Below, in pieces: positions 38,271 through 58,321 of a stretch of DNA of 64,000 nt. The translations under genes and the position numbers were made by a program. This DNA is from a virus. Lineage: Duplodnaviria > Caudoviricetes. Position 1 is the first letter of the stretch. Each line of letters begins with the position of its first letter. Below the pieces are notes generated by a model. That model had not been told where the DNA came from. It made no database searches and saw nothing but the letters and a program-made list of their open reading frames with translations. The stretch is taken from positions 32,001 through 96,000 of IMG/VR virus record IMGVR_UViG_3300020577_008610, one strand, 5' to 3'.

Positions 38271-39449
38271 CTAGCCTCCAAGATGTGACAATAGTAGATT
38301 ATCATATTGGGCACTAATCGTCTCGAAGCTGTAAAGGATTAAAAGCTTTTGCCGAAGATCCATGGCCCACTCCTTGGGAACTGCGTGGCTTTCTACGAAC
38401 TTCAAGAATCTTCTCTTGGCATCGGCTTCTGTAGGATAGGCCCACTGAGCCCCGGGAACAAAGATTTGTCCATCCACCCTGGTTTCATGAACAGGAGCTA
38501 GCTTGTGCTCCACTTTCGAGAACCTTCCGTGCTTCATAAAATCCATGTGCCCGGACCAGCCTGTAGCAAACACAGGAAGCCCTGTGGCTGCTGCCTCCAG
38601 GATAGGCAGACCATAACCCTCGCCGTGCGTCAGGGAGACAAGCGCCTTGACCTTGGGATGGCTGTAGAGGCCCACCACCTCCGAGTTGGTCATGGGACCG
38701 TGCAGAAGGTAGAACTTTGGCCCAGGGCCACGTTGCACTCCAGCAAGGATTTGCAACAGGGTATTTTGGGTGGCTAGCCGATCAATCTTGGTGTTCCTGA
38801 TCATGTTAGTTTTGATGATCACACCAACGTCTGGACGATTGGCAAATGCCTCTGCCATCCACTTCAAAGTGTAAGGCAGGTTCTTCCGGTCGTTCTCGGG
38901 ATTGGTCCCAGTGATCTGGCCAAAAACCAGGAAGTTGAAGTCCGTTGGAATCTGGCTCAGGTCGATGCTGTGCTCCGAAGGATTTTTCACCTCGTCAATG
39001 AAAGACTCGGGAATCACCACAATCTCTGTGTTTACAGGACCGGAGTTCAAGAACGACTGCTTGGTGAACTCAGATGGAACAATAACCAAGTTCATGTTGT
39101 TGACAGCTTCAACCCACTTAGGGTTGCACTTGTCTGTCTCCACACCAGCCGTCATTCCGACGTTGAAGGACCCCAACATGGGATTCCACTCGTTCGGCAG
39201 TTGAAGCTGGATCGTGACATCATAGAAGGGCTTGGTATTCTCTGTTGCCTGGAGGATGCGACCCACAAGGCCATCCTCGGCTTCCACGTCCGTTAACCAC
39301 CCGGTGTGCCCCCAGTGGAGAGCTTCCACGGCGATGTCAAGGTCCAGCTCTTCTTCCTTGGAAAACAGCCACTTGGCCACCTGTCGAGCATGAACACCAT
39401 ACCCGGAGCAGGTCAAAACAGGAGCCCTCAAAAGAACAGTTTTTCCCAT
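38271..39449 (-). CDS. Glycosyltransferase, GT-B (GT4-like)
   Basis: SGYGVHAR, RKN, GEGYGLPILEAAATGLPV. Confidence 0.9.
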   Translation of the reverse strand: MGKTVLLRAPVLTCSGYGVHARQVAKWLFSKEEELDLDIAVEALHWGHTGWLTDVEAEDGLVGRILQATENTKPFYDVTIQLQLPNEWNPMLGSFNVGMTAGVETDKCNPKWVEAVNNMNLVIVPSEFTKQSFLNSGPVNTEIVVIPESFIDEVKNPSEHSIDLSQIPTDFNFLVFGQITGTNPENDRKNLPYTLKWMAEAFANRPDVGVIIKTNMIRNTKIDRLATQNTLLQILAGVQRGPGPKFYLLHGPMTNSEVVGLYSHPKVKALVSLTHGEGYGLPILEAAATGLPVFATGWSGHMDFMKHGRFSKVEHKLAPVHETRVDGQIFVPGAQWAYPTEADAKRRFLKFVESHAVPKEWAMDLRQKLLILYSFETISAQYDNLLLSHLGG

Positions 39450-39451
39450 GG

Positions 39452-40879
39452 TTACTTCCCCTTGCCCTTCACTCCCAGCTTGGCCAGGATCGTGGGGTGG
39501 ATTTTCTTGAACGGATGATCAGCGGGCAGGTTGATGGAAGGCTTTGACTTTTCCACCTGGGCTGCCACTCTCTGTGGTTGAACCTGGACGTTCAGTGGTG
39601 TAATGCTCCACCGCTTCCGAGTTGCCTTCTCTGCTTCCCACTTCTGGATGGTCTCCGAGAGAGTCCTGGACCACTCCTCAATCATTTTCTCGAAACTGAA
39701 TTCGTGAGCCACATACTCCGTAGTCTTGGCCTTCATGGCAGCCTTTTCCTCGGCCGTCATCTTGTAAATTTTCATCAGACCATTGGCCACATCTTCCTGC
39801 GACGCAAAATCCTCGTAGATGTACGGAACCATCTGGCTTCCAACCAGCTTCCTGGTCACAGGCTCAATAGCAGCTCCCAGCTCCGTTCCATCTCGGTAGT
39901 CAACCACCTGACGGGTCAGACCACCTGTCTTCAGAGCCACCACAGGCTTGCCACACTGAAGGGAGATGAGGGTAGAAAGCCCAAATCCCTCATTCTTGGC
40001 AATGTTGATGCAACAATCCGTTACGTTGTGCAGGACGTTCATGTGCCCGAAATCAAGCTTTTGAACAGAGAACAGAACGTTGTTCTGTAGCCCCAAGAGC
40101 TCCTGAACCATGAGTAGGTTTGGACCTTCAGGATCTCCAGGATCTGTGTGCATCACAAGACATGCCTTCCGGTGTCCCTCTTTCTTTTCCAGCTTGTCCA
40201 GGAAGAGCTTCCATGCCTCCATGACATCAGAAGGAAGCTTGCGGGTCGCATTTCGGTTAACCCACAGAGCCATGAACCAATCAGCCCGGGGACCAAAGTT
40301 GGCCTTCCGTAGCTGGGCAATCTCGTTCTCCGGACCAGCAAAGTACATCTGCTTTGGGAAGGAGTGAGGAATGTAGTTGGTCTTCTCTGGAAAGTGAGGC
40401 TTGACCATCTCGTATGTCTTGTAGGACAAACAGTTGATCAGCTCCGTGGATTCATACCAAACCCGATTGAACATGGGGTAGGGATCATTGTCCCAGACGT
40501 GCCAGTATGCAATCGGACAAAGCTGGTGAATCTCATCCTCAACCTCCCAGAGCCAGACGAACTGCCTTGGATCGGTGAAAATGATGATGGCATCCGGACG
40601 CTCAGTCATCAGGATGTTCCGGACTTGATCACGGGTTCCAAAGCCATCCACAGGCTTGATGATAAAGTCAGGATTTACCTGGACAGTAGAGTAGTCCGGA
40701 TGCTTGATTGCTCCACCAAGGCATAGAAACTTGAACTTTCCTGTGGCAATGAGGCCCTCAATGAGCATCCTTGCTTGTACGCCCACTCCTGAAGGGGCAA
40801 GTGGGTGATCAGACAGGAACAGAATCTTCTTCTTCTCAAGCGGGGCGGTTACCGGTTCAGTTTGCTTGATGAGTGGCAT
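39452..40879 (-). CDS. Glycosyltransferase, GT-B (GT4-like)
   Basis: SGVG, NRNATRK, NEGFGLSTLISLQCGKPVV. Confidence 0.9.
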   Translation of the reverse strand: MPLIKQTEPVTAPLEKKKILFLSDHPLAPSGVGVQARMLIEGLIATGKFKFLCLGGAIKHPDYSTVQVNPDFIIKPVDGFGTRDQVRNILMTERPDAIIIFTDPRQFVWLWEVEDEIHQLCPIAYWHVWDNDPYPMFNRVWYESTELINCLSYKTYEMVKPHFPEKTNYIPHSFPKQMYFAGPENEIAQLRKANFGPRADWFMALWVNRNATRKLPSDVMEAWKLFLDKLEKKEGHRKACLVMHTDPGDPEGPNLLMVQELLGLQNNVLFSVQKLDFGHMNVLHNVTDCCINIAKNEGFGLSTLISLQCGKPVVALKTGGLTRQVVDYRDGTELGAAIEPVTRKLVGSQMVPYIYEDFASQEDVANGLMKIYKMTAEEKAAMKAKTTEYVAHEFSFEKMIEEWSRTLSETIQKWEAEKATRKRWSITPLNVQVQPQRVAAQVEKSKPSINLPADHPFKKIHPTILAKLGVKGKGK

Positions 40880-40923
40880 TTCTTACCTTTTGCTCATTGA
40901 TTGTTGAGCATCGTTTAAATTTG

Positions 40924-40946
40924 TATTGCCTGTTTTAGGCAATACG
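40924..40946. promoter_or_regulatory. Inverted repeat between divergent genes
   Basis: GTATTGCCT-gtttt-AGGCAATAC, 9-bp perfect stem. Confidence 0.45.
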
Positions 40947-40990
40947 CTCAGTCTACTGCAATTAACCAGAGAGACTCTAATAGGTGGCCC

Positions 40991-40997
40991 ATAGTTA
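40991..40997 (+). promoter_or_regulatory. Putative late promoter ATAGTTA
   Basis: Motif 6 nt upstream of ATG 41003. Confidence 0.5.
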
Positions 40998-41002
40998 CCA
41001 TC

Positions 41003-41266
41003 ATGAAAATCACAACTGCTCAACTACGTCAATTAATCAAAGAAGCCGTCTACAAAGGTCTACGTGAAGGCGCGTACGAACCACCCAACTGGGATGATTA
41101 TTTTTCTTCCGATAGAGAAAGTGGCCATGAAGGTATGATGGATGTCATTTTGAGCAAATTGGAAGAAGGCGAACCACTAAGCAAAGATGAGCTTGAAGCT
41201 CTCAAAAGCGAACTTAGTGGTGACAGGCACATGGCAGGTCTAAAGCACTCTTCCGGCGAATTCTAA
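41003..41266 (+). CDS. Small protein with MKITxxQLRQLIKE leader (putative internal head protein)
   Basis: N-terminal leader with IKE and LRE motifs; late-type motif upstream. Confidence 0.6.
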   Translation: MKITTAQLRQLIKEAVYKGLREGAYEPPNWDDYFSSDRESGHEGMMDVILSKLEEGEPLSKDELEALKSELSGDRHMAGLKHSSGEF

Positions 41267-42099
41267 ATCCCATATTTGATTCTAATAGACTCGGGCAAGT
41301 ATTCCGTGTTATAGCGAAGAGCCAATGGAATAGTCCATTCGTAACCCAACGAAATCTCCAGGTTCACGTTATTGCCCTTCTCATCCCAGCCCAACCACTT
41401 GTTTTCATACCAGTCCTCGTTGGGCGGACTATCACCAACAATCCTAGAAAAGGCCAAGGCTGTCAGGTGTTTCCAGTACATGTTCTGCGGAGACAGACAG
41501 AACCCGAGATTGTGGACCCTGGCAGGAAGCCTGTGAATGCCCTCAGAAGCCCCATTGAAGCCTGTTTCGCCCATGGGAGACCCTAAGATACGGTGAAACA
41601 CCACAGACGTTCTGTTGGGCCTCTCGGGCACGTAGAACTCGGGGGTCTTCCATAACTCAACCTGCCGGGTTGTAGCCTGGGTGCCAGAGTAAAGATGCCA
41701 GGAAGTGAAAGCTTTCTCAGCTTCCTCCGCACTGAACACATGGTCAGGCTCAATGAAGACCACGGTATATGGCTTGCACCTCTTTAGGATCAGGTTGTTG
41801 ACAATGTGGGTGAGTTGGCCTTTTGGAGTTGGCCAGTAGTCATCAATGATTTCGACCTTGGATTCGTTCAATTCCCGAATCTTCTCTCGGGTCTTGTCGA
41901 ACTCCTCCGGCCAGGAGACCCACTGCCCTTTGTAGGTCACTCCTCGGGTATTGCCCCATGGCTTCTCGGCCTTCACGACGAACACCTTGTCCACATAAGG
42001 GAGGATGGATCGGATGGACTCCTGGATGAAATCCTCGCCATAGAGGATTCGATAGACCGCTACAGTGCCTAGATCGCAGTTTGGATGAGTGGTGGACAT
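41263..42099 (-). CDS. Glycosyltransferase-like, GT-A (GT2-like)
   Basis: EDFIQESIRSILPYVDKVFVV; EPDH at the DxD position. Confidence 0.65.
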   Translation of the reverse strand: MSTTHPNCDLGTVAVYRILYGEDFIQESIRSILPYVDKVFVVKAEKPWGNTRGVTYKGQWVSWPEEFDKTREKIRELNESKVEIIDDYWPTPKGQLTHIVNNLILKRCKPYTVVFIEPDHVFSAEEAEKAFTSWHLYSGTQATTRQVELWKTPEFYVPERPNRTSVVFHRILGSPMGETGFNGASEGIHRLPARVHNLGFCLSPQNMYWKHLTALAFSRIVGDSPPNEDWYENKWLGWDEKGNNVNLEISLGYEWTIPLALRYNTEYLPESIRIKYGI

Positions 42100-42986
42100 G
42101 CTTCTCTGGACCCGCTGTTGAGAATGTTGGAAATTAGGTTGAAATTGAGTGTCTGAAGATTGGAGGCAAGTGTTTTATTGCGAGTGTGGTTTACCCGCTC
42201 AAAGGGTTCAAATACCACCACAGGAACAATCCCTATGCGGGAGTAGTTCATCAGGTGTTCGGTATCCTCACCCCAGAATTGCTTAAACCGCTCGTCATAG
42301 CCATTCTTGACCATCACATGCCGGTCACCGAAGTAGAGCCCATTGCCCAGTCGATAGTCATTCTTCAGGTTTAGGACGCCGCCGTTAGGGAATTGCTGGA
42401 ACTTCCCGATGATGTTGTTGAAGTTGGTGTAGGACAGCCTTACGTCTACGTCCAGAACGAACATGTGGTCATAGGTGGCATTTTGGAGACAGAGGTTCCG
42501 GGCGTAAGCCATGTGGAACTTCTCCAGCGGCTCCTTGTGGACTCGAATTCCTGGGGGGAGATCTGCATCCCCAAAAAGGACCACACTGATTTCCATGTTC
42601 TCATGTAGCCACTTCTGGTAGTGTTTGATCGTCTCCCGGAAGATTGAGATGTATGGCTCATCCGCTGTGCATATGAACCCAAAGGTCACCCCTGGAATGT
42701 ACTTGGCTGTCTCCTTGGGGAAGGCAAGCTTCAGCCGAGCTGCTTCTTTTAGGACAAACAAGTGAAAGGAGTGGTCGTCATATGCTAGAGCCTCGATGAG
42801 CCGTGCTCCTTCAATCTCAATTTCCTGTGGAAGACGTCCGTGCCAAACTCCCAGCATGGAATGCAGCGGTGCTTCCAGGAAGTGCTTCTCGAAATCTGTG
42901 ACATTTGTGAAAAAGTAGTGGGGACCAGCACAATAAGGCATGGTACCCTCGAACTTGTGCCGAGCACATTCCATGGAAAGAGTCAT
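42069..42986 (-). CDS. Glycosyltransferase, GT-A (GT2/GT7-like C-terminus)
   Basis: ARN, LDVD, NGYDERFKQFWGEDTE. Confidence 0.75.
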   Translation of the reverse strand: MTLSMECARHKFEGTMPYCAGPHYFFTNVTDFEKHFLEAPLHSMLGVWHGRLPQEIEIEGARLIEALAYDDHSFHLFVLKEAARLKLAFPKETAKYIPGVTFGFICTADEPYISIFRETIKHYQKWLHENMEISVVLFGDADLPPGIRVHKEPLEKFHMAYARNLCLQNATYDHMFVLDVDVRLSYTNFNNIIGKFQQFPNGGVLNLKNDYRLGNGLYFGDRHVMVKNGYDERFKQFWGEDTEHLMNYSRIGIVPVVVFEPFERVNHTRNKTLASNLQTLNFNLISNILNSGSREACPPLIQTAI

Positions 42987-43011: not shown

Positions 43012-43815
43012 CTATTGCACTTCCACGTCCAAAATTTTGACTTGATCGTTGCTGAAGACGGCAACTTCTGGAATTCCCTCCACCAAGTCCTCACCGTAGA
43101 AGACAACGGCATCGTAGACGTTGGAAGAGGCTTGCCTTGCTTCTTCCTTGTCCTTGGTGACCAGAACCCTGAAAGCGGTGACAGAGACGGTATAGACCTT
43201 GGGACGGTACTTGGAAGAATCGAGACCAACATCATCCAGTAGGTCATACATCCACGACGGGGAGCCGGTGTTGCCCCCGAAGATATTCGTGAAGTCATCC
43301 AGGCCGTTATCTCCTCGTTCGCCCTTTTTGGCACCTGGGATGAAGTCGGCAATATCTGAAATGGTGTTCGGATCCACCTTCAGGAATTGCTGGAACCCTT
43401 GAGAATCAAACGTTCCTTCTCCTGGTGGGGGGTTGTCATTCCAAAATCCATGAGCCCGTGCAAAAGTCTCCCAGGCATCTGGGCCTTCCTTGTAGATGGC
43501 CTCCAGGAACTCTCCGGCTGGCTTGTTCATACTCTTCAGGTCTTGAATGACTTCAGGGGGAAGACCCATGTTCCTGTTGGCGTTGGCATACTTCCAGGCC
43601 GCTCGTTTGGAAGGAGTGAAAAAGAGCCCTTTCCCGTAGTAGGCATTGACCAGTTCATCTCGGCTTTTCCCAATGTCAAAAGCCTTGAAAGAAGCCGTGG
43701 TGCCGTGATAAAGGGTAACAGGCTGGCCCGAAGTAAGACCTTCTAGGCCGTAGTAGGAGAGGTTCAGGTCGGGGGACTCTTTGAGTAACCACTTCCAGTG
43801 ACGTTGTAGTCTCAT
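43012..43815 (-). CDS. ADP-ribosyltransferase-fold protein (ART-PolyVal-like), putative internal head protein
   Basis: LYHGT, YGKGLFFT, EVAVFSNDQVKI; N-terminal LLKE leader. Confidence 0.65.
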   Translation of the reverse strand: MRLQRHWKWLLKESPDLNLSYYGLEGLTSGQPVTLYHGTTASFKAFDIGKSRDELVNAYYGKGLFFTPSKRAAWKYANANRNMGLPPEVIQDLKSMNKPAGEFLEAIYKEGPDAWETFARAHGFWNDNPPPGEGTFDSQGFQQFLKVDPNTISDIADFIPGAKKGERGDNGLDDFTNIFGGNTGSPSWMYDLLDDVGLDSSKYRPKVYTVSVTAFRVLVTKDKEEARQASSNVYDAVVFYGEDLVEGIPEVAVFSNDQVKILDVEVQ

Positions 43816-43820
43816 GGAAG

Positions 43821-43837: not shown

Positions 43838-46800
43838 TTACGGCTTCGCAGGAGCCTCAGAAAAGCCACCGAAAGCGAGAGCGGAGGAATGGCCCTTGCC
43901 CACCCCGAACACGAATACCCCAGGCTGCTCAGGGATCATTCTCCAGGGGTCAATCACCACAGACCCAGCAGGAAACTTATAATCCCGGAATACAGCGTGG
44001 TGGGTGCCAATAAAGAAACACTTGGCAGGCCCATTAGCATACGGATTCACCGTCTTGTCCTCGGCCTTGTCCACCCAAGGATCATACATCTCAGCCTCGA
44101 TGCCCCTCTCGGCCAGGATGTTCTTCAGGAGGATCGCAGGAGAGCCAACCTCAAGGTTGGTCTGCTCCTTGAATGCCTTCCCGAGAATAACCACAGGAAG
44201 AGTTCTGTACTCCTTGACTGTGAAGTCTTCTGCGGAGTAAATGCCAACCTTTCGGTACTTCTCAACCAGATTGGCCAGGAAGTCCGTCTGCTTTTCTCTT
44301 GCCATCATGATGGCCTCATGGAAGTCAAAGGTCATCCCTAGCTTCCTGGAGAGCCAAGAGAGGGCGATGTTGTCCCGAGGGTGGCAGTTGTTTGATATAC
44401 CTGATGTAGTCAGATAGTTGTGAGTTCCTTCAACATTAAGGTTGTACACAGTACCCTTGTAGTCTTCCAGTTCTACCTTGACAACTTGGTGGTAAGATAC
44501 ACCATCAATTACCGGGATTTCTCGCTGGATAAACTGTGCAATCGCTGGTTTATGGTTTTGTTCACCAAGCAAGGTGCAAAGCTTTTGAACATATTGGTCA
44601 TTTTCAACTCTGACCTTCCATTGAGGTTTTCGATTGCACCCATCATTGCTGTTTTTCTTTTCAACAGTAATTGTTGGCACAATGCCAAACTTCCTGAGAA
44701 TGAAGTAAAGGTTAGAAGCCAAGACCTCAGAAGTGGTTGTGTAGCTCAAACCCTTGCCATTCTTCATGTTGCATCCATCCCCTGCCCACATGCTTTGTAC
44801 CAATGGAGTCAACACTTCTGGTTTGGCAAAAAGCAGCCATGGCGGGATTGTCTTCTTTGAAGAACCTCTCCCAAAGTCGTTCAAGAGCTTGCGTTTCAGG
44901 TCAGCAGAACTAATCCGAATATCCAAGCCATTTCGCTTGTTGTGCTTCTTTGCTGAAACGCGCTTGCTAGGATACAAACGCTTCAATGATTTAGTGAGAT
45001 CGGTATGCAATTCAGTTTCATTGGAATGGAAACTGAAAGCAACACGAGGCTCATTAGCGATAGAACCTTCTGCAAGATAGTAACCAGCTACCTTCAAGTA
45101 ATCCTCTGTGGCATGCTTGGGCATTGCAAAGTCTTGGTTGTGTGCCTCAAATGGGAAAAGAATGTGATGCCTGTTCGGTTCCAGTTCCCAGCCCTTGACT
45201 TCTTTTACTGTTGTCACCTTAGTTTTATCTTCCAGTTCGGCCACCAAGAACGTGTGGTCCAAGGTAAACTTCATGGCAGGCAAACCTTTTACATGCACAT
45301 TCACAAGTTGTGAGTGATAAGGTCGCCTATACGTTTCAAGCACCTTGTGAAACTGCCCATCCGAAGACAACACCATGTCACCCTTCTGGATATCTTTGGT
45401 CTGTCTCACTCCTAACTCCGTGAAAACATTACAGTTTTCAAGGGTGCATCCCCCACCGTCTCCCATGCCTGCATTCAGGTACTTCGTAGAGATGAGACGT
45501 TCCTTCCCCAGCTTCAGAGCCGAAGTCACCTCATCCACATCTGCTCCGGTGTGGTGACAGATTTCCATGAGGTTGTTGACAAAGGCAATCTTGGTGGAGA
45601 TGAAGGTGTTACCCTGCCATGAGCATTTGCCATTTCTTCGCGTCAAAAACACATGATTCTTAGGCAGGACGGCACAATAGATCATGCCCTCGTATTCTGG
45701 CACTTCCTCATACTTCAATCCAACCTTGGATGAACGCTGAAATAGGGATGTTCTGCCTGTGAGCTCGTAGATAAGGTTGCAAGGCTTGTTTGAAAGCTCA
45801 CTCTCGTAGGCCCGATATGAGGGGAAGTGGCCTGCCTTGATAATCAGCTCGCCAATGTCCGCTGCCATCTGCTCTGACGAGGTGGCGTAATAACGATCAA
45901 ACTCCCCGGTGGGTTCGCCATTGAATCTAGTTCTTGCTTGCTTACTGCCATCAGCTTGGTTGTAAACATCCAAGAACAGCCTGATCTCCGGACGACCAAG
46001 CTTCTTGAGCCATGATGGCACGTACTTATCAAATGACTTACCAAACTGGCACAGGTATTCCCCGAGTTCGGCATGGTAGAAAGTGACACCTGACTCTTGC
46101 TGGCAGATTCCATTGCTGCTTCCAAGAGCAGCTTGCAGCGCGGCGACGGTCTGAACGATGGAATTGTACTTTTCCAAATTTTTGGAACGGTTCTGAGAAA
46201 TGATAATTTGGTAGGAGTTCTCAGAAACCTTGGTTGTGCATCCTTCTGCCAAATACCAAGCCATGAACTCAGTCATAAGCTCTATCGGAACTTCTCCAAA
46301 CCCCAGGTTAACGGTTTCTGGGGACTTTAGGTCCCAGTTTGTGTGCCTGAGAAAAGCAAATGATTTCCTCTTGATAACTTCATTTGCTTTCTCCAGCTTC
46401 CACTCGTAAGAGTAGCTCTTGCCATTGGCTGGCTTAGAGCTGAGTGTACCGATAAACATGTTGTGTCCTGGAGTGACAAACACATCATCCTTTCGACTTT
46501 GGAATCGAATCATAGGCCCCTGGTGGTAACGGCCAACGATTTTGTCTGGCTTTACCCATTCGGGCACGAGGGTGTCTGGGTTCAGACTGAGTATTTCGTC
46601 CTTCTCGGCAACATTCGGAAACAGCTTCCACCCACCCGAAGTCAAAACTTCTGTGTCTTCCGAGTAGCAGTTATAAGCAACCTTCACAAGTTCAGCACTC
46701 TTGATGGAGCATCGATAGAACGGAGCATTGTGGATGGTCTTGTAGAAGGCTTCAGCGAGGTCAGCCGTCTTCTCGTCACTCATTCCAAAGAGGACAAACT

Positions 46801-47308: not shown

Positions 47309-47309
47309 T

Positions 47310-48092: not shown

Positions 48093-48161
48093 ATAGCCAA
48101 GTATGAGCCAAGCTTACCCAATTACACATATCCACTTCATGAGTATGAACACAGGGGAGGT

Positions 48162-49966: not shown

Positions 49967-51036
49967 GCGAAATTCTTGTCAGGCATTTCCGTGGTAACAT
50001 AATGCAAAATCTCATTGGAATTTTTGTAATAACAATGCCAACACTGGCCTTGGATGTCAATGTCATAAGGATTGCCTCCCGCCTTGAAATTGGCATTCAT
50101 AGAATGCCAGGCTTCTTTGATCTTGTCCGAGTCGCATAGCTTCCAAGTGTCGTGATAGTTCCGGTGCTTTAGAACATGGGAGGTGCACATGTACACACCG
50201 TTCCACACCCAGTAGGGTCTCACCATTCCAACCCAACAGCCGCCTTGGTAGGCATGGAAGGTCTCTCCAATCTCCTTGATGAAGAACTTGGAGTTGGTGT
50301 CAACAGCCTTCACGATGTCACCCCAGTCCTTCTTGATGGTGATGGAGTTCTCGGTGAGGCAGTCAGAGGCGATTCGAACGAACTTGATCTCCGGGTTCAA
50401 TTCCACCAGTTTTGCGATCTTCTGGATGGACTCCACAGTGGTGCCTTCGTAGATGATGTAACTGAATCCCATCTTGGAGACGGGAAATCCCGTGAAGTCG
50501 TAATCCTCAGGGTTCTTACCTTCGTCCAGCTTGATGAGAGAAATTCGAATCCAAGAGAGCTTTGCAGCATTCTCTGGCTTGATGTGCCTGGAAAGCTTCT
50601 CGGAGTTGGTGATAACCCCAATCTCGTAGCCCAAAGAGTGTGCCAACTCAATGATGTGGTTGGCATTTTTGTCCCCATCTTTATAGAGCAGAGGGTTGCC
50701 ACCTCCAGTGATCTCCAAAGACTTGGCTCCCAGTTCTCGGAACTCTCGAAGACCCTTCTCGATGAGAGCAAAAGGGATCTTCTTGTCCACCGACCTCCAG
50801 GATACCGAGCAGAATGGGCAGTTGGAATCGCAAGCTTCTGTGGGAGCAAGCTGGATGGTGATTGGCTTGAAGGTTTTGTCAGCCTGGATGGAATGCAACA
50901 CGTCAGCATGTTGAAGGAGTTTTCCTCCCCAGGTAGAATACGCTTGCGTCTGCTGCTCGTAACTCAGGTTCTCCTTCACAGGAGCCCCAACAGGCTGCTG
51001 CCCTGGCTGAATCACGTTTAACTTTGTTTTACCCAT
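49963..51036 (-). CDS. Radical SAM enzyme with SPASM/twitch-like C-terminus
   Basis: CDSNCPFC, ITGGGNP, ITN; C-terminal CWVG..YMC..CWHC. Confidence 0.88.
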   Translation of the reverse strand: MGKTKLNVIQPGQQPVGAPVKENLSYEQQTQAYSTWGGKLLQHADVLHSIQADKTFKPITIQLAPTEACDSNCPFCSVSWRSVDKKIPFALIEKGLREFRELGAKSLEITGGGNPLLYKDGDKNANHIIELAHSLGYEIGVITNSEKLSRHIKPENAAKLSWIRISLIKLDEGKNPEDYDFTGFPVSKMGFSYIIYEGTTVESIQKIAKLVELNPEIKFVRIASDCLTENSITIKKDWGDIVKAVDTNSKFFIKEIGETFHAYQGGCWVGMVRPYWVWNGVYMCTSHVLKHRNYHDTWKLCDSDKIKEAWHSMNANFKAGGNPYDIDIQGQCWHCYYKNSNEILHYVTTEMPDKNFA

Positions 51037-51421
51037 GTTGTTTCACCTCACGAATCTGCTGTTCCTCATCGAAGACGGTGGACCCACCCATCAAAAGTCC
51101 AAAGTGGTTTTCGTACCCGGCATTAGAGAAAACTTCATCCCCAGAAGCTTTACTCTCCAGTTCTCGAAACACAGCATCCGAAGACCCAAGAGACGGGTTG
51201 ATAAAAACCTGAATATTCATCCCCTTTCGGATGTACCGCCGCAGGGCATAGAACTCCGAGGAGCTTTTGTGGTCATCGTTATCCACCCACAACAGAACCT
51301 CTACTGGATCAAACTTCTGACCCGTCTTGGCTCTCCAGGCTTCATAACCAACAACGCTGTCCAGAAATTTAAACAGGGTAGCAGGATCTTTTGGGAAATA
51401 CAAGCAAATGGTGATAGACAT
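51029..51421 (-). CDS. Truncated GT2-like protein
   Basis: VEVLLWVDNDD and ASGDEV resemble LEIVFYMDKDD and ATGEI of the adjacent GT. Confidence 0.5.
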   Translation of the reverse strand: MSITICLYFPKDPATLFKFLDSVVGYEAWRAKTGQKFDPVEVLLWVDNDDHKSSSEFYALRRYIRKGMNIQVFINPSLGSSDAVFRELESKASGDEVFSNAGYENHFGLLMGGSTVFDEEQQIREVKQHG

Positions 51422-51423: not shown

Positions 51424-52134
51424 TTATCCGATCTTGGTGTAAGTTCGAATGAACTCCAGGAGTTTCCGAGCATCTTCCTGACGCTTAGGGAACATGTCAT
51501 TATACATCTGGGTCACATTGTCCCGATGGCCACGAGCCACAGTATCAGAGTAGGTCTGATCTCTTGGCTGCTTTCCGACAGCCCAGTGCATGTGCTCTGT
51601 ATAGATACGCGGCTCATAAACTCTCCGACCAATCATCGTGCTTACATCAGTGAGCCAAGTGTCATTGTAGTCACAGGAAAAGTACGGAGGTACGAAGTAG
51701 CCAACGGTATTCACCCAGTTCCGGTGAAGGAAACCGTGGGTACCCAGCTTTTCATTTTGGATGCCGTCCATCCCGTGAACAAATACGATTTTGTCCGGCT
51801 GGGCATTGATGTGCTGCCTTACCAGAGTGTCCCACCCCTGGGAGCGGAAAATAATGTCATCGCCGCAATGCAGGTAGATTTCACCTGTGGCAATCTTCTG
51901 GCATTCATTCCACATCTGGGAAAGGACAATTCTTTCTCCGCAGATGCCAAGGTGCTGTGGAGAGTCCATTCGCTCGAACTGCTCCAAGGAGTGAATGTCA
52001 TCCTTGTCCATGTAGAAGACAATTTCCAGATTTTCCTTGTCGTCGGCTGTGTTCCAAGCAGACTCCCAGAGACGCTGCATTGCGTGTGGTCTTCCCCTGG
52101 TGGGTGTGAGAAGGCTGATCTTTGTATTGCTCAT
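51424..52134 (-). CDS. Glycosyltransferase, GT2-like
   Basis: ISLLTPTRGR, CGDD, YNDTW. Confidence 0.82.
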   Translation of the reverse strand: MSNTKISLLTPTRGRPHAMQRLWESAWNTADDKENLEIVFYMDKDDIHSLEQFERMDSPQHLGICGERIVLSQMWNECQKIATGEIYLHCGDDIIFRSQGWDTLVRQHINAQPDKIVFVHGMDGIQNEKLGTHGFLHRNWVNTVGYFVPPYFSCDYNDTWLTDVSTMIGRRVYEPRIYTEHMHWAVGKQPRDQTYSDTVARGHRDNVTQMYNDMFPKRQEDARKLLEFIRTYTKIG

Positions 52135-52490
52135 AGTCGAATAGACCTCATTTGCCCATTCTCATGGATTCCCATGAAATTGGAATGCTCCCGGACCCAA
52201 GACTCTCCAGAAGCGTCCTCGTAGGTGACCAGGAACCTTGTTGGATCTTCACAGTCACGAGATACACGAACAACAGTATACACGGTGCCCTTGAAATGCC
52301 TCCACTTGGTTCCAGGAACAGGATCGAGGGGTTTGGGATCCAGGTTCTTGTTGTTTGATACGTTTCTGCCTCTGAGAACATCTCGGAGTTCTTGTACCTG
52401 TTTGGCCATGACTAGATACGAAGTCTTCATCCAGGACTCAATTCCATAGCCTTCAAAAGACTTCACCAATTCTTCAAGGTCAACATCCAT
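52131..52490 (-). CDS. DUF1653-like protein
   Basis: WRHFKGTVYTV...VTYE...WVR...F. Confidence 0.75.
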   Translation of the reverse strand: MDVDLEELVKSFEGYGIESWMKTSYLVMAKQVQELRDVLRGRNVSNNKNLDPKPLDPVPGTKWRHFKGTVYTVVRVSRDCEDPTRFLVTYEDASGESWVREHSNFMGIHENGQMRSIRL

Positions 52491-52526: not shown

Positions 52527-53297
52527 CTATTGAGATTCGTCATTTACTCCCGTCCATCTTCTGTAAAGGTAGAGTTTTTCAGCCAAAACAGTGGTGTTTC
52601 TGAGAGCAAGTGTCACTCTTAGGTTAAAGTCAGAGTCCTCCGAGTTGGTGATCCGGAGACCCATTCCTGGAGGGTTGAACCGGAACCCAACGTTCCAGAG
52701 AGCCTTGAGGAACATCGCAGAAGTTCCAGCTGTTTCAAACTCTGCCGTGAAGAAATGGTTAATGCCCTCGGTCTGGAATCCGTACTGAACCATCTGGGAA
52801 ATGGTATCAGCTTCAATACCCTTGAGATCTCCTTCCACGTATTCATTCTTTCGTGCCTGCACCTCTTCCTCGGAGTGGCAGTGGTAGAAGCCACACAGGT
52901 TGTGAACGCTCTCTGTGGCCCTCATGGCCTGAAATTGCCTCTCGATTCGCTGAGGCAATGCAATGTCATCAGCATCCTGACAGGTAATGACGAGGCCATT
53001 GCATTGCTCAATTGCGGCATTCAAGCAAAACCACTTCCCCTTGTTGGAAGGAAGGTTGATGTAGCGAACCCTAGGGTCCTTGCGACACATTCTTTGGGCT
53101 ACCTCATCTGTCTCATCCGTTGAGCCATCATTCACGATGACGATCTCCAGGTTTCGGTAGGTCTGTCCGATAATGCTCTCCACGCTCTCTTGGAGAAACT
53201 TCCCATGATTAAAACAAGGGATGACTACAGTAATCGTAGGGAGTTCAGTAATCGATTCGTCCTGGCTGGGCTGCTCTGTTGCTGCTTCTGTTGACAT
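52527..53297 (-). CDS. Glycosyltransferase, GT2
   Basis: VVIPCFN, VNDGSTD, QDADD, SED. Confidence 0.92.
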   Translation of the reverse strand: MSTEAATEQPSQDESITELPTITVVIPCFNHGKFLQESVESIIGQTYRNLEIVIVNDGSTDETDEVAQRMCRKDPRVRYINLPSNKGKWFCLNAAIEQCNGLVITCQDADDIALPQRIERQFQAMRATESVHNLCGFYHCHSEEEVQARKNEYVEGDLKGIEADTISQMVQYGFQTEGINHFFTAEFETAGTSAMFLKALWNVGFRFNPPGMGLRITNSEDSDFNLRVTLALRNTTVLAEKLYLYRRWTGVNDESQ

Positions 53298-53581
53298 GTT
53301 TTGAGTCCTGCTTTTCTCAGTTGTTTGCTCAAAGAGAAAGATAGTCTCCCATGAACGGGATGAATATATCTTTCTGAACCTGAAGTGGGTTCTACCACAT
53401 TTTATGCTCTTCTAGGCTTGCAGCTAGTTTTCAATCCAGTGGACTTCGAAATAGCTTTGAGGCCAGCTCTCCAAAGCTGCCTGGCAAAGTTCTACTTTGC
53501 CATGGCTTTCTCTGGAAGGTACTTTGGCGACTCACTGCCTGGTGGATGAGTGGTAATGAACCATTTGAAACTTTTACCCAT
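53225..53581 (-). other. Two tandem in-frame mini-ORFs with LW/LR(R/K)AGLK motifs (first interrupted by TAG)
   Basis: MGKSFKW...AMAK*NFARQLWRAGLKAIS...RRA* then VVEP...LSKQLRKAGLKTCQ...*; below the ORF-track cutoff. Confidence 0.5.
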
Positions 53582-54602
53582 GCGTTTTTACCCAATCTTG
53601 GATGAGAGCAGGGTGGGACCTGTGGATAGTAACGTGAGGAGTTGCCGTTCCCGACCATCTGAAGTGAAAGATGTGCCCTCCGGTCTTATTCTCCAGGTCC
53701 ACGGCCTTTTGACGGATCATCTCATCGGTTACCTTGGCCCAAGGGACTTCAAAGAATGGATTCCAGTCAGGGTCCTTGTTCTTAGCACTGTCCGGACCGT
53801 ACATGGCTTTCCAAAAGGTTGTCCAGAAGGAACGGTACTGCTTGATCTTTCGCTCCACGGAAAACCAGGAATAATGATGAACTCCTGGGAGCTCTGTGAC
53901 AGCTTGATTGAACCACTTTTCGTAAGTAGCAATCAACTTGGAAGGATTTTTCATCACTATGTGTCGAAGACTGTCAATCTCTGGGGGCATGAAGCCCATC
54001 ACAGGGAGAATTTGGCCTGTACTCTTGGAGATGTAGTCGCAGGTATCTGTTCCCGGCGAGGCATAGTCCAGGCCGTTAAATTTCCTCCTGAGCTGGACAG
54101 GGATGCCGTGAGTGATGTCTGGAAGGTTTCGAGAAAGACGAGCTTTCCAGGGGTTGATATCAGCTCGAACCTTCCCTTTGCTTCCCCAGTATTCAATAAC
54201 AGGCAAGGCCACAATGGAGCATTGCCGAAGGTAATTCAGCTTCTCAATCAAAGGCCGAATCTTCGGAGCATCCAACTCGTGGACAATCTCATCCGTATCG
54301 AACTGCCATAGAAACTGCCCCTTGCAGTGAGACCTAGCCAGGGCCTTCGTCTGCCCATCGAAGATACCGTGATTAGGGGCCTTCCAGTCGAACTGATCGG
54401 TATGGAGGGCCCTAACCCTAGGGTCCTCCTTGGAGAGAGCTTGTAGAGCCTCCAGGGTGCCTTCGTTGGGGTCTCCAGAATCCAGAACAACTACCTCGTC
54501 AGCAAATTGAAGCATGCTCTTGATGGACTCCAGGAAAGGGTAGTCCATAGTCAGGGCATTGCGAGTGGTCGTGTAAGCAGAAATGGTAACTGCGGGAGGC
54601 AT
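53574..54602 (-). CDS. Glycosyltransferase, GT2-like
   Basis: YPFLESIKSML, DEVVVLDSG, QFDTDE. Confidence 0.8.
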   Translation of the reverse strand: MPPAVTISAYTTTRNALTMDYPFLESIKSMLQFADEVVVLDSGDPNEGTLEALQALSKEDPRVRALHTDQFDWKAPNHGIFDGQTKALARSHCKGQFLWQFDTDEIVHELDAPKIRPLIEKLNYLRQCSIVALPVIEYWGSKGKVRADINPWKARLSRNLPDITHGIPVQLRRKFNGLDYASPGTDTCDYISKSTGQILPVMGFMPPEIDSLRHIVMKNPSKLIATYEKWFNQAVTELPGVHHYSWFSVERKIKQYRSFWTTFWKAMYGPDSAKNKDPDWNPFFEVPWAKVTDEMIRQKAVDLENKTGGHIFHFRWSGTATPHVTIHRSHPALIQDWVKTHG

Positions 54603-54605
54603 GGG

Positions 54606-54944: not shown

Positions 54945-54959
54945 GTGTTCTCCAAATGC

Positions 54960-54987: not shown

Positions 54988-54994
54988 TATATCA
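54986..54994 (-). promoter_or_regulatory. Sigma70-like extended -10 promoter TGATATAAT
   Basis: Perfect TGnTATAAT 42 nt upstream of the 54944 start. Confidence 0.5.
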
Positions 54995-55018
54995 CTTGGA
55001 GTTTCGAAACGCTACGGA

Positions 55019-56092
55019 TTACCACTCTCCGTTGGTGATGACGTTCTTGGGAGTGGGAGTTGGACCCTTGAGATTGACCGTGTGGTTGGTGATCTTTTCG
55101 TTTAGGGGAGAGTCGTCCTGCTGACCGGTGAACCCATGATCCTTGTCCTTCTGGGAAACAGGCTTCACGTTGGCCAGAGTACCGGAACCCTTGACGGCAT
55201 CATGGCCGTTCTCGTAGGTGAAGTAGGCTCCCTTGTACTCCGAAGCAGCGATGGGGCTCTCGGGGCACTTCTCTCCGGTAATTTGTTTCCAGAGTTCAGC
55301 GTTGACAATGTGGATGAACACACGTTCAGCCTTGGCTTGATCCCACACTTCGATCCCATGAGGATCCTCGTAGACCTTCTGCTCCATCCGGCCACCCTGA
55401 GCCAGGCCCATCTCGGTCGACTTGTTGAAGGAGCGAGAAGACGACCTGGTTGCGATCGGAGCACCAAAAGGTTCGGCGGAAGTGTTGTAAGGCTCAAATG
55501 CGGCTATACTGGCAGCGTAGATCTCCGGATCACCTCGATAGGTGTATTGAGGTACCTTAATGGCCCCAGGTTTCGGAGGAATCACGAGAACCTGGATGCC
55601 TCCCACGTCTTCCTTACCGGTGACCTGGGCTTCCACGGTGTAACTCTTGCCCATCTGCATGGCCACGAACTGACGAATCTGTCCGCCACCGATGTTGAAC
55701 CCATCCAGCCAGGGCTGGGGATCAGGAGCGACCATGTAGTCTTGCTCAGGATCTTTGCCATCCACGCCGGTTGGGGGTTGAAGCTCCTGGGACCACTTGC
55801 CACCGGAAACAGCATTTACCTTGCCGGTTGCCACCTTCACGGCAGAGGTTGGGCCGGAGAAGCCAAGCCACATTGCTTCACGCTCGAACATGGGGATGAA
55901 GACACCACCGTGGTCCTTCCAGGCAGCAGGCACCTTATCCTTGTAGTCTTCGATCCGCTTCATGGCGAAGTGCCCACGAGACGGAGGAAGGGAGTGAGAC
56001 TTCCCATCCTCTGGCAGCCGAATGGTCCGGTGCAGGGTGATGGTGAAGCCGTTGTCGAACACGATGGAACCGTTCTGAATCTTGATCGTCAT
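55019..56092 (-). CDS. Conserved uncharacterised protein (RTxRxPxDG / QPWLDG / RQFVAM family)
   Basis: HRTIRLPEDG..LPP, EREAMWLGF, QPWLDG, RQFVAMQMG..YTVEAQVTG. Confidence 0.7.
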   Translation of the reverse strand: MTIKIQNGSIVFDNGFTITLHRTIRLPEDGKSHSLPPSRGHFAMKRIEDYKDKVPAAWKDHGGVFIPMFEREAMWLGFSGPTSAVKVATGKVNAVSGGKWSQELQPPTGVDGKDPEQDYMVAPDPQPWLDGFNIGGGQIRQFVAMQMGKSYTVEAQVTGKEDVGGIQVLVIPPKPGAIKVPQYTYRGDPEIYAASIAAFEPYNTSAEPFGAPIATRSSSRSFNKSTEMGLAQGGRMEQKVYEDPHGIEVWDQAKAERVFIHIVNAELWKQITGEKCPESPIAASEYKGAYFTYENGHDAVKGSGTLANVKPVSQKDKDHGFTGQQDDSPLNEKITNHTVNLKGPTPTPKNVITNGEW

Positions 56093-56104
56093 TTCTTGTT
56101 TTCC

Positions 56105-56971
56105 TTACGGACAGAGAGGGGTTGCTCTGAAATCACAGAACCGGCATGAGTTCCGGTTCTTTAGCCAGTAACGTTTGGCTATCAGGTTTACTGACAACGA
56201 AACGAGGTCCAGAGCATCTTTCCTCGTCTTGTCGCCTACAGACACCTCCACAAGCTCACAACGCTCTTTCTTGGCTGTACGCTTGAGGAGGACAAATCCA
56301 CACCGAATGTCCTCCAGCGGTATGCCCATTTTGACACTGAAATAGTGCTTGTAAAGGGTTAGCTGCATTCTTTTGAATTTGTCTTGCTTCTTCTTTTTGT
56401 CCCAACCCCAAGAGGTGGTTTTCCAATCAAGAATCCAGTAGATATAACCGGATGCAGGTTTCTTGCTGCCCTTCCGAGCCTGCTTGGGCACCTTAACCAC
56501 ACAGTCAACGAACCCTTTGAACCACTTGTTGGTTAGGCCTTCAATCGGCTCAAACAGCGGCAGTTCGGCTGCAACGACTTCCCATCCTGGGAAAGTCTCA
56601 TTCATCCAAATGGGAACCCTTCGAAGGATATGGTCGATGGGATTCATCCACTCCTCCATCAGAACTCCAGGATCCGGCTTAAAGTTGGGCAGCTTATCGA
56701 AGTCCTTGAGGATTTCGTTGTAGCAATCGTCAATCCGCTCTTCCCAGTCAAAGTCAGCAGTTTTACCCTTAAGCAGCCAATCCTGGAGAGCTGAGTGCAT
56801 TCCGTGACCGTAGATAGTATGCTCCGTATCAGGTTCGGTATGCCCATCCACGTACTTCAGTTTGTGCTTGTGACCGCAGTCATTGCATGTGCTGACTTCC
56901 GAGAAGGAAACGTGGTATTTCCCGGTCGGAAGTATTGTTGGGTCCTTGAAAAGAGGAAGGTGGACGGACAT
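56105..56971 (-). CDS. Cas4/RecB-like PD-(D/E)XK exonuclease
   Basis: SFSEV..CGHK, KGFVD, ILDWKT, QLTLY, C-terminal CRFCDF...C (Fe-S ligands). Confidence 0.85.
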   Translation of the reverse strand: MSVHLPLFKDPTILPTGKYHVSFSEVSTCNDCGHKHKLKYVDGHTEPDTEHTIYGHGMHSALQDWLLKGKTADFDWEERIDDCYNEILKDFDKLPNFKPDPGVLMEEWMNPIDHILRRVPIWMNETFPGWEVVAAELPLFEPIEGLTNKWFKGFVDCVVKVPKQARKGSKKPASGYIYWILDWKTTSWGWDKKKKQDKFKRMQLTLYKHYFSVKMGIPLEDIRCGFVLLKRTAKKERCELVEVSVGDKTRKDALDLVSLSVNLIAKRYWLKNRNSCRFCDFRATPLCP

Positions 56972-57007
56972 GGGTTTAGCATAACATGCTTCTGGCCCGA
57001 TGTTGAC

Positions 57008-57014
57008 CTATTTA
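57008..57014 (+). promoter_or_regulatory. Putative late promoter CTATTTA
   Basis: Motif 6 nt upstream of ATG 57020. Confidence 0.5.
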
Positions 57015-57019
57015 CCAAC

Positions 57020-57385
57020 ATGGACAAGACACCCGAAAATCTGAAACTCCTACAGGAGTTCACAGCCTATGTGATTGAGCAGCTCCAAATCCAGAGCAAT
57101 GCCAAGATCATTTTCCTTTTCGGACATGACCCCAATTACCCTTCTGCGGGCGGTTATCTCCCAGGCAAAAAGACCGTGGTGTGTGCTGTGAAGAACCGGG
57201 CCATTGCAGATGTCATGAGAACTCTAGCCCACGAACTGACCCACCATCGTCAATATGAGCTGGGGATGATTGGCCCTGGAGATATGGACAACCAGAAGCT
57301 TGAGGACCAAGCCAACGTTTACGCTGGCCGTCTGGTCAGGTGGTTCGGGCGGGAGCACAAGGAAATCTACGGGGACCTGGGCTAG
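57020..57385 (+). CDS. Small HExxH zincin metallopeptidase
   Basis: TLAHELTHHRQ...EDQANVYAG; start reassigned to 57020. Confidence 0.75.
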   Translation: MDKTPENLKLLQEFTAYVIEQLQIQSNAKIIFLFGHDPNYPSAGGYLPGKKTVVCAVKNRAIADVMRTLAHELTHHRQYELGMIGPGDMDNQKLEDQANVYAGRLVRWFGREHKEIYGDLG

Positions 57386-57394
57386 AACCTTCGG

Positions 57395-58321
57395 CTAAAT
57401 GCTGAGTTGCGCCCAGAAGAAGTCACCCCTGGAGCGGAGATAGGCTTCGCAATCCTCTGCTGAGGAAGCAAACCACTCGTCGTTCTTCTGGAGCACATTG
57501 TCGTTGACCATCACCTTCAGGCCCATCAGACGGGCCTCCAAGGTGACTCGGGGACAGGTGTCCTTGTCGAGCGGCATGAAGATGAACCCCTCGTACTGGC
57601 TGAGCCGCTGGAGGAAATCCTTGTACGGCAGGTTCGGGATGGGCTCGGACTTGAACTTCTTCAGATTGCACCACTTCTGGGTCTCGTCCACTCCCTTGAT
57701 CCAGGAGCCCGAGCCGAGGGTGGCCCAAACAGCCTTCCGCTCCCTTGGCTCCTGATTACGGTAGGAAGCCAGAAGGTCCAGGGTTTCGTCATCGAAGACA
57801 GAAGACAGGACGATATGGCCAGGGTGGTCAACCAGTTCAGGAACGTGACGGAGCCAGTGTCCTTTTTGCCCATAGGACATCCAGAAGATCCTCTCGGCTT
57901 TTCGGAAAAGCCGGACAACCATCAGGCCGTGCTTGTCCTTGGCGCAATTGCAAGACTCTCCTGTTGCTTGCTGGTGTCGGTTGGTGGATCTCCAGGCACA
58001 GAACTTGAAGTCGTACTCCACGATAGAGTAGCGAACCCCACTTTCAGGGAGGTACTGGATCATGGTCTCGTTCATGGCGGCAAAGTTGCCGAAGATCCAG
58101 TATTTGTCCTTGTTGGCGTCCAGAAGCTTCCGGGTAACCGAGACTGAGTGCAAGCGGAAGACCTTGTGGGGGCTCTTCTTGATGATGGCTTCAGAAGTCA
58201 GTTCGGCTCCTCCTGCAACCTCGCGAACAAAATAATCGTTGACAAAGACAACTTTTGCTGTCTTGGGAATGGCGTACTCCACCGGCATTCCAGTAAACAA
58301 ACTTCGACCTACTCCACTCAT
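57395..58321 (-). CDS. Glycosyltransferase-like, GT-B
   Basis: GGAELT, KGVD, DTCPRVTLEARLMG. Confidence 0.7.
   Translation of the reverse strand: MSGVGRSLFTGMPVEYAIPKTAKVVFVNDYFVREVAGGAELTSEAIIKKSPHKVFRLHSVSVTRKLLDANKDKYWIFGNFAAMNETMIQYLPESGVRYSIVEYDFKFCAWRSTNRHQQATGESCNCAKDKHGLMVVRLFRKAERIFWMSYGQKGHWLRHVPELVDHPGHIVLSSVFDDETLDLLASYRNQEPRERKAVWATLGSGSWIKGVDETQKWCNLKKFKSEPIPNLPYKDFLQRLSQYEGFIFMPLDKDTCPRVTLEARLMGLKVMVNDNVLQKNDEWFASSAEDCEAYLRSRGDFFWAQLSI

Follow-up and report, generated by a model that had tools for sequence, protein, structure and literature searches.

What does a set of soluble glycosyltransferases (GTs) act on when the phage that encodes them shows no sign of the membrane machinery of envelope glycan synthesis? 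The question is raised by a gene island at 38271-58321 of a 64,000-nucleotide stretch of DNA (hereafter the window), which comprises bases 32001-96000 of a 189,179-base IMG/VR virus contig (IMGVR_UViG_3300020577_008610; G000) with a completeness of ~48% as estimated by CheckV. The source virus is a distant T4-like phage. The first-pass annotation of the island had proposed that its soluble GTs glycosylate [ST]GS sites in virion proteins. In the present analysis, the excess of this motif turned out to be real, specific and rooted at the protein level, and to accompany two adjacent GT-B genes; the link between motif and enzymes is, however, confounded by phylogeny, and the motif does not track the island as a whole. 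The explanation that we favor, still tentatively, is a soluble, cytoplasmic virion O-glycosylation system that would be primed by a heterodimer of the two GT-B proteins and extended by variable cassettes. Its support comes from the identities of the genes, protein folds, synteny, the statistics of the motif and a heterodimer that was modelled.

The [ST]GS motif and the GT-B pair

Across the 207 open reading frames (ORFs) of the contig, [ST]GS occurs 125 times compared to 42.3 occurrences expected from each protein's own composition, and TGS and SGS rank first and second of all tripeptides in this genome. In the nine richest proteins, TGS is found 47 times (5.4 expected) and SGS 40 times (6.1 expected), whereas SGT (12 versus 5.4), TGT (5 versus 5.1), GGS (1 versus 5.4) and VGS (0 versus 4.6), along with GSG and NGS, are not enriched. 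The codons at the [ST]GS sites are diverse, which indicates selection at the protein level and rules out the motif being a by-product of a DNA word. The carriers that could be assigned to families are virion proteins, namely the major head protein and an adaptor-like protein; other carriers are encoded downstream of the gene for the gp6-like protein and are assigned to the baseplate block by position only. In a 1144-amino acid (aa) protein, 8 of the 15 sites are conserved in at least 7 of 11 orthologs (31-85% identity), and the other sites turn over. The gp6-like protein itself (32079-33923) and its ~30 orthologs (L051-L083) mostly contain no [ST]GS, with ~0.5 expected in each, and the two proteins encoded just downstream of gp6 are 5- to 10-fold enriched, so that the motif is selective among baseplate parts.

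The genes with which the motif is associated are the last two of the island in the direction of transcription:

38271-39449, minus strand: GT-B, 392 aa, GT4-like (phrog_2170, 1.6e-21; Glycos_transf_1, 26.2 bits with a cut-off of 26.4)
39452-40879, minus strand: GT-B, 475 aa (Pfam Glycos_transf_1, PF00534, 29.9 bits with a cut-off of 26.4)

Five genomes that encode this pair have high observed-to-expected ratios of [ST]GS: 2.96 in G000, 3.56 in G001, 2.48 in the Flavobacterium phage immuto, 2.51 in the Microcystis phage Mel-JY01 and 2.66 in the Rhodothermus phage RM378. In five genomes that lack the pair, the ratio is 0.66 (T4), 1.32 (P-SSM2), 1.47 (HTVC008M), 1.48 (G002) and 1.41 (G003). Co-occurrence of motif and enzymes, which had been suggested as a check of the virion hypothesis, was thus observed for the GT-B pair but not for the complete island. 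Given these ratios by genome, the motif follows the pair rather than the part of the island that consists of a UDP-sugar dehydrogenase (Ugd), a radical S-adenosylmethionine (SAM) enzyme and a 236-aa GT. A link between [ST]GS and the module of Ugd and the 236-aa GT was considered and rejected because G002, G003 and HTVC008M have this module without a strong excess.

TGS and SGS are among the top six of ~8000 tripeptides in the genomes with the pair, with the exception of Mel-JY01 (ranks 4 and 19), and in 71 further pair-bearing loci taken together [ST]GS is found 568 times compared to 222 expected ([ST]GT, 258 compared to 190). Proteins encoded next to gp6 retain the excess from 99% down to ~30% gp6 identity. 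The baseplate-to-fibre genes of immuto contain 54 [ST]GS (13 expected), and the richest carriers in that phage are tail spikes without a homolog in the phage analyzed here. Hydrophobic residues are enriched at positions -1 and +1 of the motif in G000, G001, immuto and RM378.

Relatives of the 392-aa GT-B were identified in at least 539 IMG/VR viral stretches; locus counts for the pair refer to the best 80 of these 539, and these 80 all belong to one clade. The gene for the 475-aa protein lies directly upstream of that for the 392-aa protein at 66 of the 69 loci with room for it. Synteny of the pair extends to the baseplate block, with gp6 present at 67 of the 80 loci, and the remaining island genes are found at just 2-12 of them. 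Cultured carriers of the pair are limited to immuto, Mel-JY01 and RM378, in addition to which a 484-kb uncultured phage carries it. The identity of the pair between phages of three host phyla is 26-35%, and this conservation across host phyla favors an acceptor that is encoded by the phage. The island is a mosaic whose sugar-building cassettes vary, the GT-B pair being its constant element throughout a deep and abundant clade.

The two GT-B proteins differ in their active sites. A canonical EX7E motif is present in the 392-aa protein, whose E277 and E285 do not vary among 10 orthologs; the 475-aa protein retains the first Glu (E297) and has lost the second. Modelled as a complex, the pair obtained an ipSAE score of 0.84, with 0.00 for the best control; the mark passed by the pair is also attained by 58 of 80 solved complexes and, among mismatched pairs, by 2 of 110. 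The runs had at least 69% of the contacts in common, with a partner pLDDT (predicted local distance difference test) of at least 91, and in the modelled interface the 475-aa protein contributes its C-terminal extension (residues 423-431), which is paired with residues 245-253 of the 392-aa protein. The model lends support to binding between the two proteins, which stays a prediction. In Mel-JY01 (PP395634.1), the ortholog of the 475-aa protein at 83441-84932 is annotated as two coding sequences (83441-84013 and 84024-84932) and may be split or frameshifted.

This arrangement resembles GtfA-GtfB, the O-GlcNAc transferase of the serine-rich-repeat adhesins of streptococci and staphylococci, which is encoded by adjacent GT-B genes, forms a heterocomplex with one degenerate subunit and primes Ser/Thr residues in the cytoplasm for extension by GT-A enzymes. 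The phage pair likewise consists of two adjacent GT-B genes, one of them degenerate, and its complex is predicted by modelling only. Unlike in GtfA-GtfB, the candidate acceptor motif is [ST]GS with hydrophobic flanks, and the island includes no accessory Sec export. The GtfA-specific domain was not detected in either phage GT-B, where Pfam identifies only Glycos_transf_1 and Glyco_trans_1_4, and neither GtfA nor GtfB chains are among the PDB profile matches at an E-value of 0.01 or better; no relation closer than GT4 is apparent. The likeness to GtfA/GtfB is a working analogy rather than membership.

The sugar-building genes of the island

Upstream of the pair, the island (annotated by comparison with Pfam, PHROGs and NCBIfam) consists of the following genes:

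41263-42099, minus strand: GT of the GT-A fold, 278 aa (no Pfam family; assigned by the fold of an AlphaFold2, AF2, model)
42069-42986, minus strand: possible GT-A, 305 aa, weak (Pfam GT2, E-value 0.0024, 18.3 bits, 19.2 in a second scan, below cut-off)
43012-43815, minus strand: ART-PolyVal ADP-ribosyltransferase (PF18760, 3.7e-13)
43838-47311, minus strand: UDP-glucose/GDP-mannose dehydrogenase family protein with two inteins (three UDPG_MGDP_dh domains, Intein_splicing, LAGLIDADG_3)
47310-48092, minus strand: GIY-YIG/NUMOD3 homing endonuclease (PF07460, 5.8e-20; PF01541, 2.7e-9)
48162-48770, minus strand: class I SAM methyltransferase (Methyltransf_23, 1.2e-8)
49316-49966, minus strand: GIY-YIG homing endonuclease (PF01541, 9.6e-8)
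49963-51036, minus strand: radical SAM enzyme of a large viral family (PF04055, 2.6e-11)
51029-51421, minus strand: conserved 130-aa ORF (no family match)
51424-52134, minus strand: GT-A, 236 aa (phrog_14945, 2.1e-41)
52131-52490, minus strand: DUF1653 protein (PF07866, 1.1e-9)
52527-53297, minus strand: GT2 family GT-A, 256 aa (PF00535, 1.1e-33, 117 bits)
53574-54602, minus strand: GT2 family GT-A, 342 aa (PF00535, 1e-5, 26.0 bits with a cut-off of 23.3)
55019-56092, minus strand: beta-rich protein, 357 aa (large family without a Pfam domain)
56105-56971, minus strand: PD-(D/E)XK nuclease (PF12705, 4.4e-14)
57395-58321, minus strand: conserved protein, 308 aa, possibly a third, short GT-B (Atlas feature scores)

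Every gene of 38271-58321 is carried by the minus strand, and 11 of the 21 gene junctions in the island overlap or are separated by 3 nucleotides or less. An all-against-all phmmer comparison of the island proteins revealed a single case of paralogy, between the two GIY-YIG genes (47310-48092 and 49316-49966; 7.9e-26). When compared by megablast with 50,697 phage records, the island had no match at the nucleotide level.

The first-pass annotation counted eight full-length GTs (three GT-B and five GT-A) and a truncated one. Seven are supported here, two GT-B and five GT-A, one of the latter weakly. The presence of a UDP-sugar dehydrogenase, a radical SAM enzyme and a methyltransferase was confirmed by Pfam, and elements that had been omitted comprise the two dehydrogenase inteins, two GIY-YIG endonucleases, ART-PolyVal, the PD-(D/E)XK nuclease and the DUF1653 protein.

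Among the GT-A enzymes, the protein encoded at 41263-42099 has 196 homologs, and an AF2 model based on 26 aligned sequences (pLDDT 94, predicted template modelling score 0.91) has as its best solved matches in Foldseek the S-glycosyltransferases SunS and ThuS together with SpsA and WrtF (E-values 4e-8 to 1e-6), which identifies the GT-A fold. The neighbouring 42069-42986 protein shows no significant similarity to the 41263 family alignment in hhalign; among the close relatives L005-L011, its orthologs are present only in L005 and L011. The supposed truncated GT at 51029-51421 is conserved as a short ORF, with orthologs of 35-80% identity in L005-L011 and a similarity to the 236-aa GT of only E 0.2. 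As for the 308-aa protein encoded at 57395-58321, the sole lead came from a language model, in the form of Atlas feature scores of 0.94-0.96 to viral clusters that partly carry PF00534; in profile tests, hhalign against the GT-B alignment matched 14 residues at the C-terminal GT-B motif with a probability of 0.7% and the PDB profile search returned no matches. This protein is possibly a third, short GT-B. The protein encoded at 55019-56092 has 4526 homologs at an E-value of 1e-3 or better, on contigs of up to 433 kb, and is confidently modelled by AF2 as beta-rich (pLDDT 81). Comparison of this model with solved folds, GTs included, gave no Foldseek match below E 0.4 (best VIA-wide Z 4.1), and Atlas places the protein in unnamed clusters only. 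Single-sequence PDB searches with the 55019, 57395 and 41263 proteins and the radical SAM enzyme returned nothing useful.

The dehydrogenase has an NAD-binding N-terminal domain, a central domain and a C-terminal UDP-binding domain that are joined without a gap when the inteins are taken out; orthologs without inteins align across both junctions and cover residues 26-243, 595-649 and 998-1167. The intein junctions are ...VAYN|C...GN|T and ...GGG|C...NN|CHPRD, the +1 residue of the second intein being the catalytic-region Cys of the dehydrogenase. The inteins are ~350 aa each and lie 53 codons apart. The closest relative, L005 (13825-16224), retains only the second of them, and six other relatives have none. 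The neighbouring methyltransferase gene is flanked by the two GIY-YIG genes, which, together with the inteins, makes this part of the island a hotspot of selfish elements. The ART-PolyVal gene is a variable insertion outside the glycan machinery.

Gene neighbourhoods in other phages provide hints as to the roles of the sugar-building enzymes. The 236-aa GT gene and ugd adjoin in 8 of 16 distant viral loci and lie within ~4 kb of each other in 6 more; since this GT usually adjoins the dehydrogenase in other phages, it is likely to be a uronosyltransferase. The radical SAM enzyme has 463 homologs, and in 65 of the 73 IMG/VR loci from which its context was read (L154-L226) a homolog of the methyltransferase gene is located next to it. 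Neighbours of the two genes in other viral contigs encode GT8 and GT25 family enzymes, a SPASM radical SAM protein, an NDP-sugar epimerase and a HAD-nucleotidyltransferase. These GT and sugar-enzyme neighbours suggest that the two proteins form a sugar-tailoring module, in which the radical SAM enzyme probably modifies a sugar.

At short range, the island is stable: all seven close relatives (L005-L011) contain the whole island in the same gene order, the variable elements being the inteins, the endonucleases, ART-PolyVal and the genes at 42069 and 55019, the latter of which is missing from L005 and L006. Farther away, the pelagiphage HTVC008M has five of the island genes, namely those for the 236-aa GT, a GT-A similar to the 41263 protein, the radical SAM enzyme, the methyltransferase and Ugd, and homologs of the 236-aa GT are also found in Streptomyces and Arthrobacter phages. 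The island of immuto, which is analogous but differs in its sugar enzymes, includes a PD-(D/E)XK nuclease, the GT-B pair, a GT2 enzyme, WecE-type aminotransferases, a methyltransferase, an acetyltransferase, an epimerase and additional GTs; that of Mel-JY01 resembles it. The PD-(D/E)XK gene is present at 30 of the 80 pair-bearing loci. It lies close upstream of the pair in immuto (48008-48949, one small ORF between) and in Mel-JY01 (81375-82271, one gene between); in the window, where gp6 identity to these two phages is only ~30%, it is separated from the pair by the whole island.

The proposed pathway and the competing acceptors

In the pathway that we propose, the two adjacent GT-B proteins, the 392-aa one with an intact EX7E motif and the degenerate 475-aa one, would form a heterodimer. 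Acting on proteins of the baseplate, fibres, neck and head, this heterodimer would attach the first sugar at hydrophobic-[ST]-G-S-hydrophobic sites, on the Ser or Thr residue. Extension of the glycan would fall to the GT-A enzymes encoded at 41263, 51424, 52527 and 53574, and perhaps 42069; the dehydrogenase would provide a UDP-uronic acid, with the 236-aa GT as its probable user, and the radical SAM and methyltransferase pair would tailor a sugar. Within the clade, the priming pair would be constant and the elaboration cassettes would vary. The acceptor, the order of the steps, the sugars and, indeed, the making of any glycan at all are what we infer from the data presented above; that the glycan might contain uronic acid and methyl groups is suggested by gene content only.

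A broader and somewhat less secure proposal is that a deep, abundant clade of aquatic T4-like phages employs an undescribed, sequon-directed cytoplasmic O-glycosylation, in which a GT-B heterodimer acts on folded virion proteins and interchangeable cassettes produce lineage-specific glycan coats. Such coats would be a phage counterpart of O-antigen diversity and would add a glycan layer to current ideas on phage host range, stability and recognition. Annotations usually list the GT islands of large aquatic phages as 'LPS genes' and ascribe them, without a test, to changes of the host surface. Virion glycosylation by the pair would explain a common class of phage 'auxiliary' genes. The pathway would also be a new system of soluble protein O-glycosylation, and its simple acceptor tag could be of use in glycoengineering. 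Because immuto, Mel-JY01 and RM378, all of which have the pair and the motif, are in culture, the idea can be tested at the bench.

Precedents exist for individual features of this scheme. Chloroviruses encode GTs of their own, which modify the viral capsid protein in the cytoplasm and make methylated glycans. The B736L protein of chlorovirus NY-2A (3oy2) is the best solved relative of the 475-aa GT-B in the profile search (3.8e-8), with BshA, TreT and sucrose-phosphate synthase close behind. Unlike the phage studied here, chloroviruses have a eukaryotic host and N-linked glycans, and the similarity to B736L is no better than that to cellular GT4 enzymes. Virion O-glycosylation has been described for the mycobacteriophages Che8, Corndog and Myrna (Freeman et al., 2023, as cited in PMC12619734 and PMC12801897). 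As far as these citing articles relate, those systems likewise employ phage-encoded soluble GTs and a methyltransferase without membrane machinery, and attach glycans in the cytoplasm to the phage's own capsid and tail proteins, as is proposed here; the sites, however, are in the C-terminal tails of capsid and tail-tube subunits, and the phages are siphoviruses of Actinobacteria. In the present case, the candidate sites are internal hydrophobic-[ST]-G-S-hydrophobic sequences, the phages belong to a T4-like clade with a conserved GT-B pair, and glycosylation is a prediction. By analogy, the proposed pathway resembles both the GtfA/GtfB and the mycobacteriophage systems while belonging to neither family.

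Several observations weigh against virion glycosylation. All pair-bearing genomes fall in one deep clade, and no second lineage was found among the best 80 loci; the association of pair and motif hence lacks phylogenetic independence, and each of them could be a trait of that clade independently of the other. HTVC008M, G002 and G003 have the sugar-building part of the island but no strong [ST]GS excess. In Mel-JY01, RM378 and immuto, the pair is located amid replication and nucleotide-metabolism genes, beside a nuclease, a setting in which DNA-modifying enzymes would be expected as well. The hydrophobic flanks of the motif are also compatible with a strand-turn structural motif, and the solved relatives of the GT-B proteins, small-molecule enzymes such as BshA, TreT and sucrose-phosphate synthase included, are roughly equidistant from one another. 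Finally, the window contains no match to the T4 late promoter TATAAATA.

The likeliest of the alternatives, which we nevertheless consider unlikely, is remodelling of the host envelope, whereby soluble GTs at the inner face of the membrane would act on lipid-linked or lipopolysaccharide (LPS)-core intermediates of the host and depend on the host for carrier, flippase and ligase; the resulting surface change could, for example, exclude other phages, and the [ST]GS motif would be unrelated. This is the usual reading of the islands of cyano- and pelagimyophages (PMC7029224, PMC12801897), and HTVC008M, with its five shared genes, is a pelagiphage. The islands of P-SSM2, S-SCSM2R and HTVC008M are similar to the one described here in that T4-like aquatic phages encode many soluble GTs together with nucleotide-sugar enzymes; they differ in lacking the GT-B pair, in their low [ST]GS ratios (1.3-1.5) and in that their function is usually assigned to the host surface. 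Loci for LPS and capsule synthesis typically include Ugd and members of the GT2, GT4, GT8 and GT25 families, and peripheral GTs of such pathways require no transmembrane (TM) segment; none is predicted in any of the GTs of the island. However, no candidate for an initiating phosphoglycosyltransferase, flippase, polymerase or ligase (Wzx-, Wzy- or WaaL-sized) was found in the 189 kb, where no protein has more than five predicted TM segments (the contig representing ~48% of the genome) and the most membrane-spanning one, with five in 243 aa, is encoded far from the island. The absence of flippase, polymerase, ligase and membrane GT that was originally noted for the island is in line with the TM predictions across the contig. 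An integral-membrane transferase, flippase or polymerase, as would be expected of seroconverting or O-antigen-modifying loci (Gtr-type, Wzy, O-acetylase), was not found in the 189 kb, about half of the genome. Moreover, conservation of the pair at 26-35% identity over three host phyla is hard to reconcile with host-specific acceptors, and the specific, pair-linked [ST]GS excess would be left unexplained.

Next in order, and rather improbable in our view, is another acceptor altogether, either a soluble polymer or glycoconjugate (examples would be an osmolyte, a metabolite of the thiol type, and a precursor of a storage polysaccharide or exopolysaccharide) or host proteins, with [ST]GS being a structural or assembly motif inherited within the clade. 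The near-level scores of BshA, TreT and sucrose-phosphate synthase with viral B736L are compatible with this possibility, as are the hydrophobic flanks, which would suit a structural turn, and the positional conservation of many [ST]GS sites. A structural turn, however, would tolerate SGT, NGS and DGS, which are not enriched; immuto shows the excess in tail spikes that are not homologous, and T4, with its related baseplate folds, does not show it; and seven GTs exceed the needs of a disaccharide. Virion proteins remain the acceptor that we favor over either of these.

Hypermodification of DNA would imply that a modified base receives mono- or oligosaccharides, perhaps including a uronic acid, from the GTs as a protection against restriction, similarly to T-even phages and SP-15. 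The DNA glucosyltransferases of T4 have the GT-B fold. SP-15 DNA carries glucuronolactone, and this phage encodes Ugd and GTs (PMC5977210); multi-sugar DNA glycans have been reported as well (Pyle et al., 2024, as cited in PMC12619734). The present island shares with the T4 and SP-15 systems the GT-B enzymes, Ugd (in the case of SP-15) and the proximity to replication genes, being adjacent to a primase and including the PD-(D/E)XK nuclease, and in relatives it lies within the replication module. Unlike in those systems, a thymidylate-synthase-like hydroxymethylase (PF00303) was found neither in the incomplete 189-kb contig nor in G001 and G008 (the latter 81% complete). Elsewhere among the relatives, PF00303 is represented by a divergent copy in G009 (53.5 bits) and by a canonical ThyA in immuto. 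The gene in G009, a 96%-complete, 289-kb member of the clade, encodes a protein of the thymidylate-synthase fold (G009:C1:118826-119347) that could be a hydroxymethylase, and is far from the GT island of that phage at 237-257 kb. The enzymes QueC and TGT of the 7-deazaguanine pathway were not found in G000, G001, G008 or G009. Analysis of immuto DNA by liquid chromatography with ultraviolet and tandem mass spectrometric detection identified dA, dC, dT and fdPreQ1, which replaces dG, and no sugar-bearing nucleoside (bioRxiv 10.1101/2023.04.13.536721), although immuto has the orthologous pair and an analogous island. These published nucleoside data weaken the case for DNA modification, which we regard as very improbable.

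Genes flanking the island

The first-pass annotation placed the island between a baseplate/sigma factor block and tail fibre genes. The baseplate part of this placement holds: the low-coordinate flank is a baseplate block with the gp6-like protein (32079-33923, minus strand), which in a search of 50,697 phage records matches only immuto, Mel-JY01 and one uncultured 484-kb phage, at ~30% identity, and a weak gp25-like protein. No sigma factor was detected in the annotation of the flank, and inspection of the regions upstream of the genes revealed no shared motif. Two further genes adjoin the island:

37935-38267, minus strand: 110-aa protein with one N-terminal TM helix (KD19 3.14 at residue 2)
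58318-60273, high-coordinate neighbour: Prim-Pol primase (PF09250, 2.4e-19)

The primase takes the place of the tail fibre genes expected on the high-coordinate side. Upstream of it, the 533-aa protein encoded at 61506-63107 (minus strand), which has no family match, contains 10 [ST]GS compared to 2.4 expected and may be the product that was mistaken for a tail fibre. Near the island, the 110-aa protein is alone in being membrane-anchored; its gene lies immediately downstream of that pair of GT-B genes, and a homolog is present at 51 of the 80 GT-B loci.

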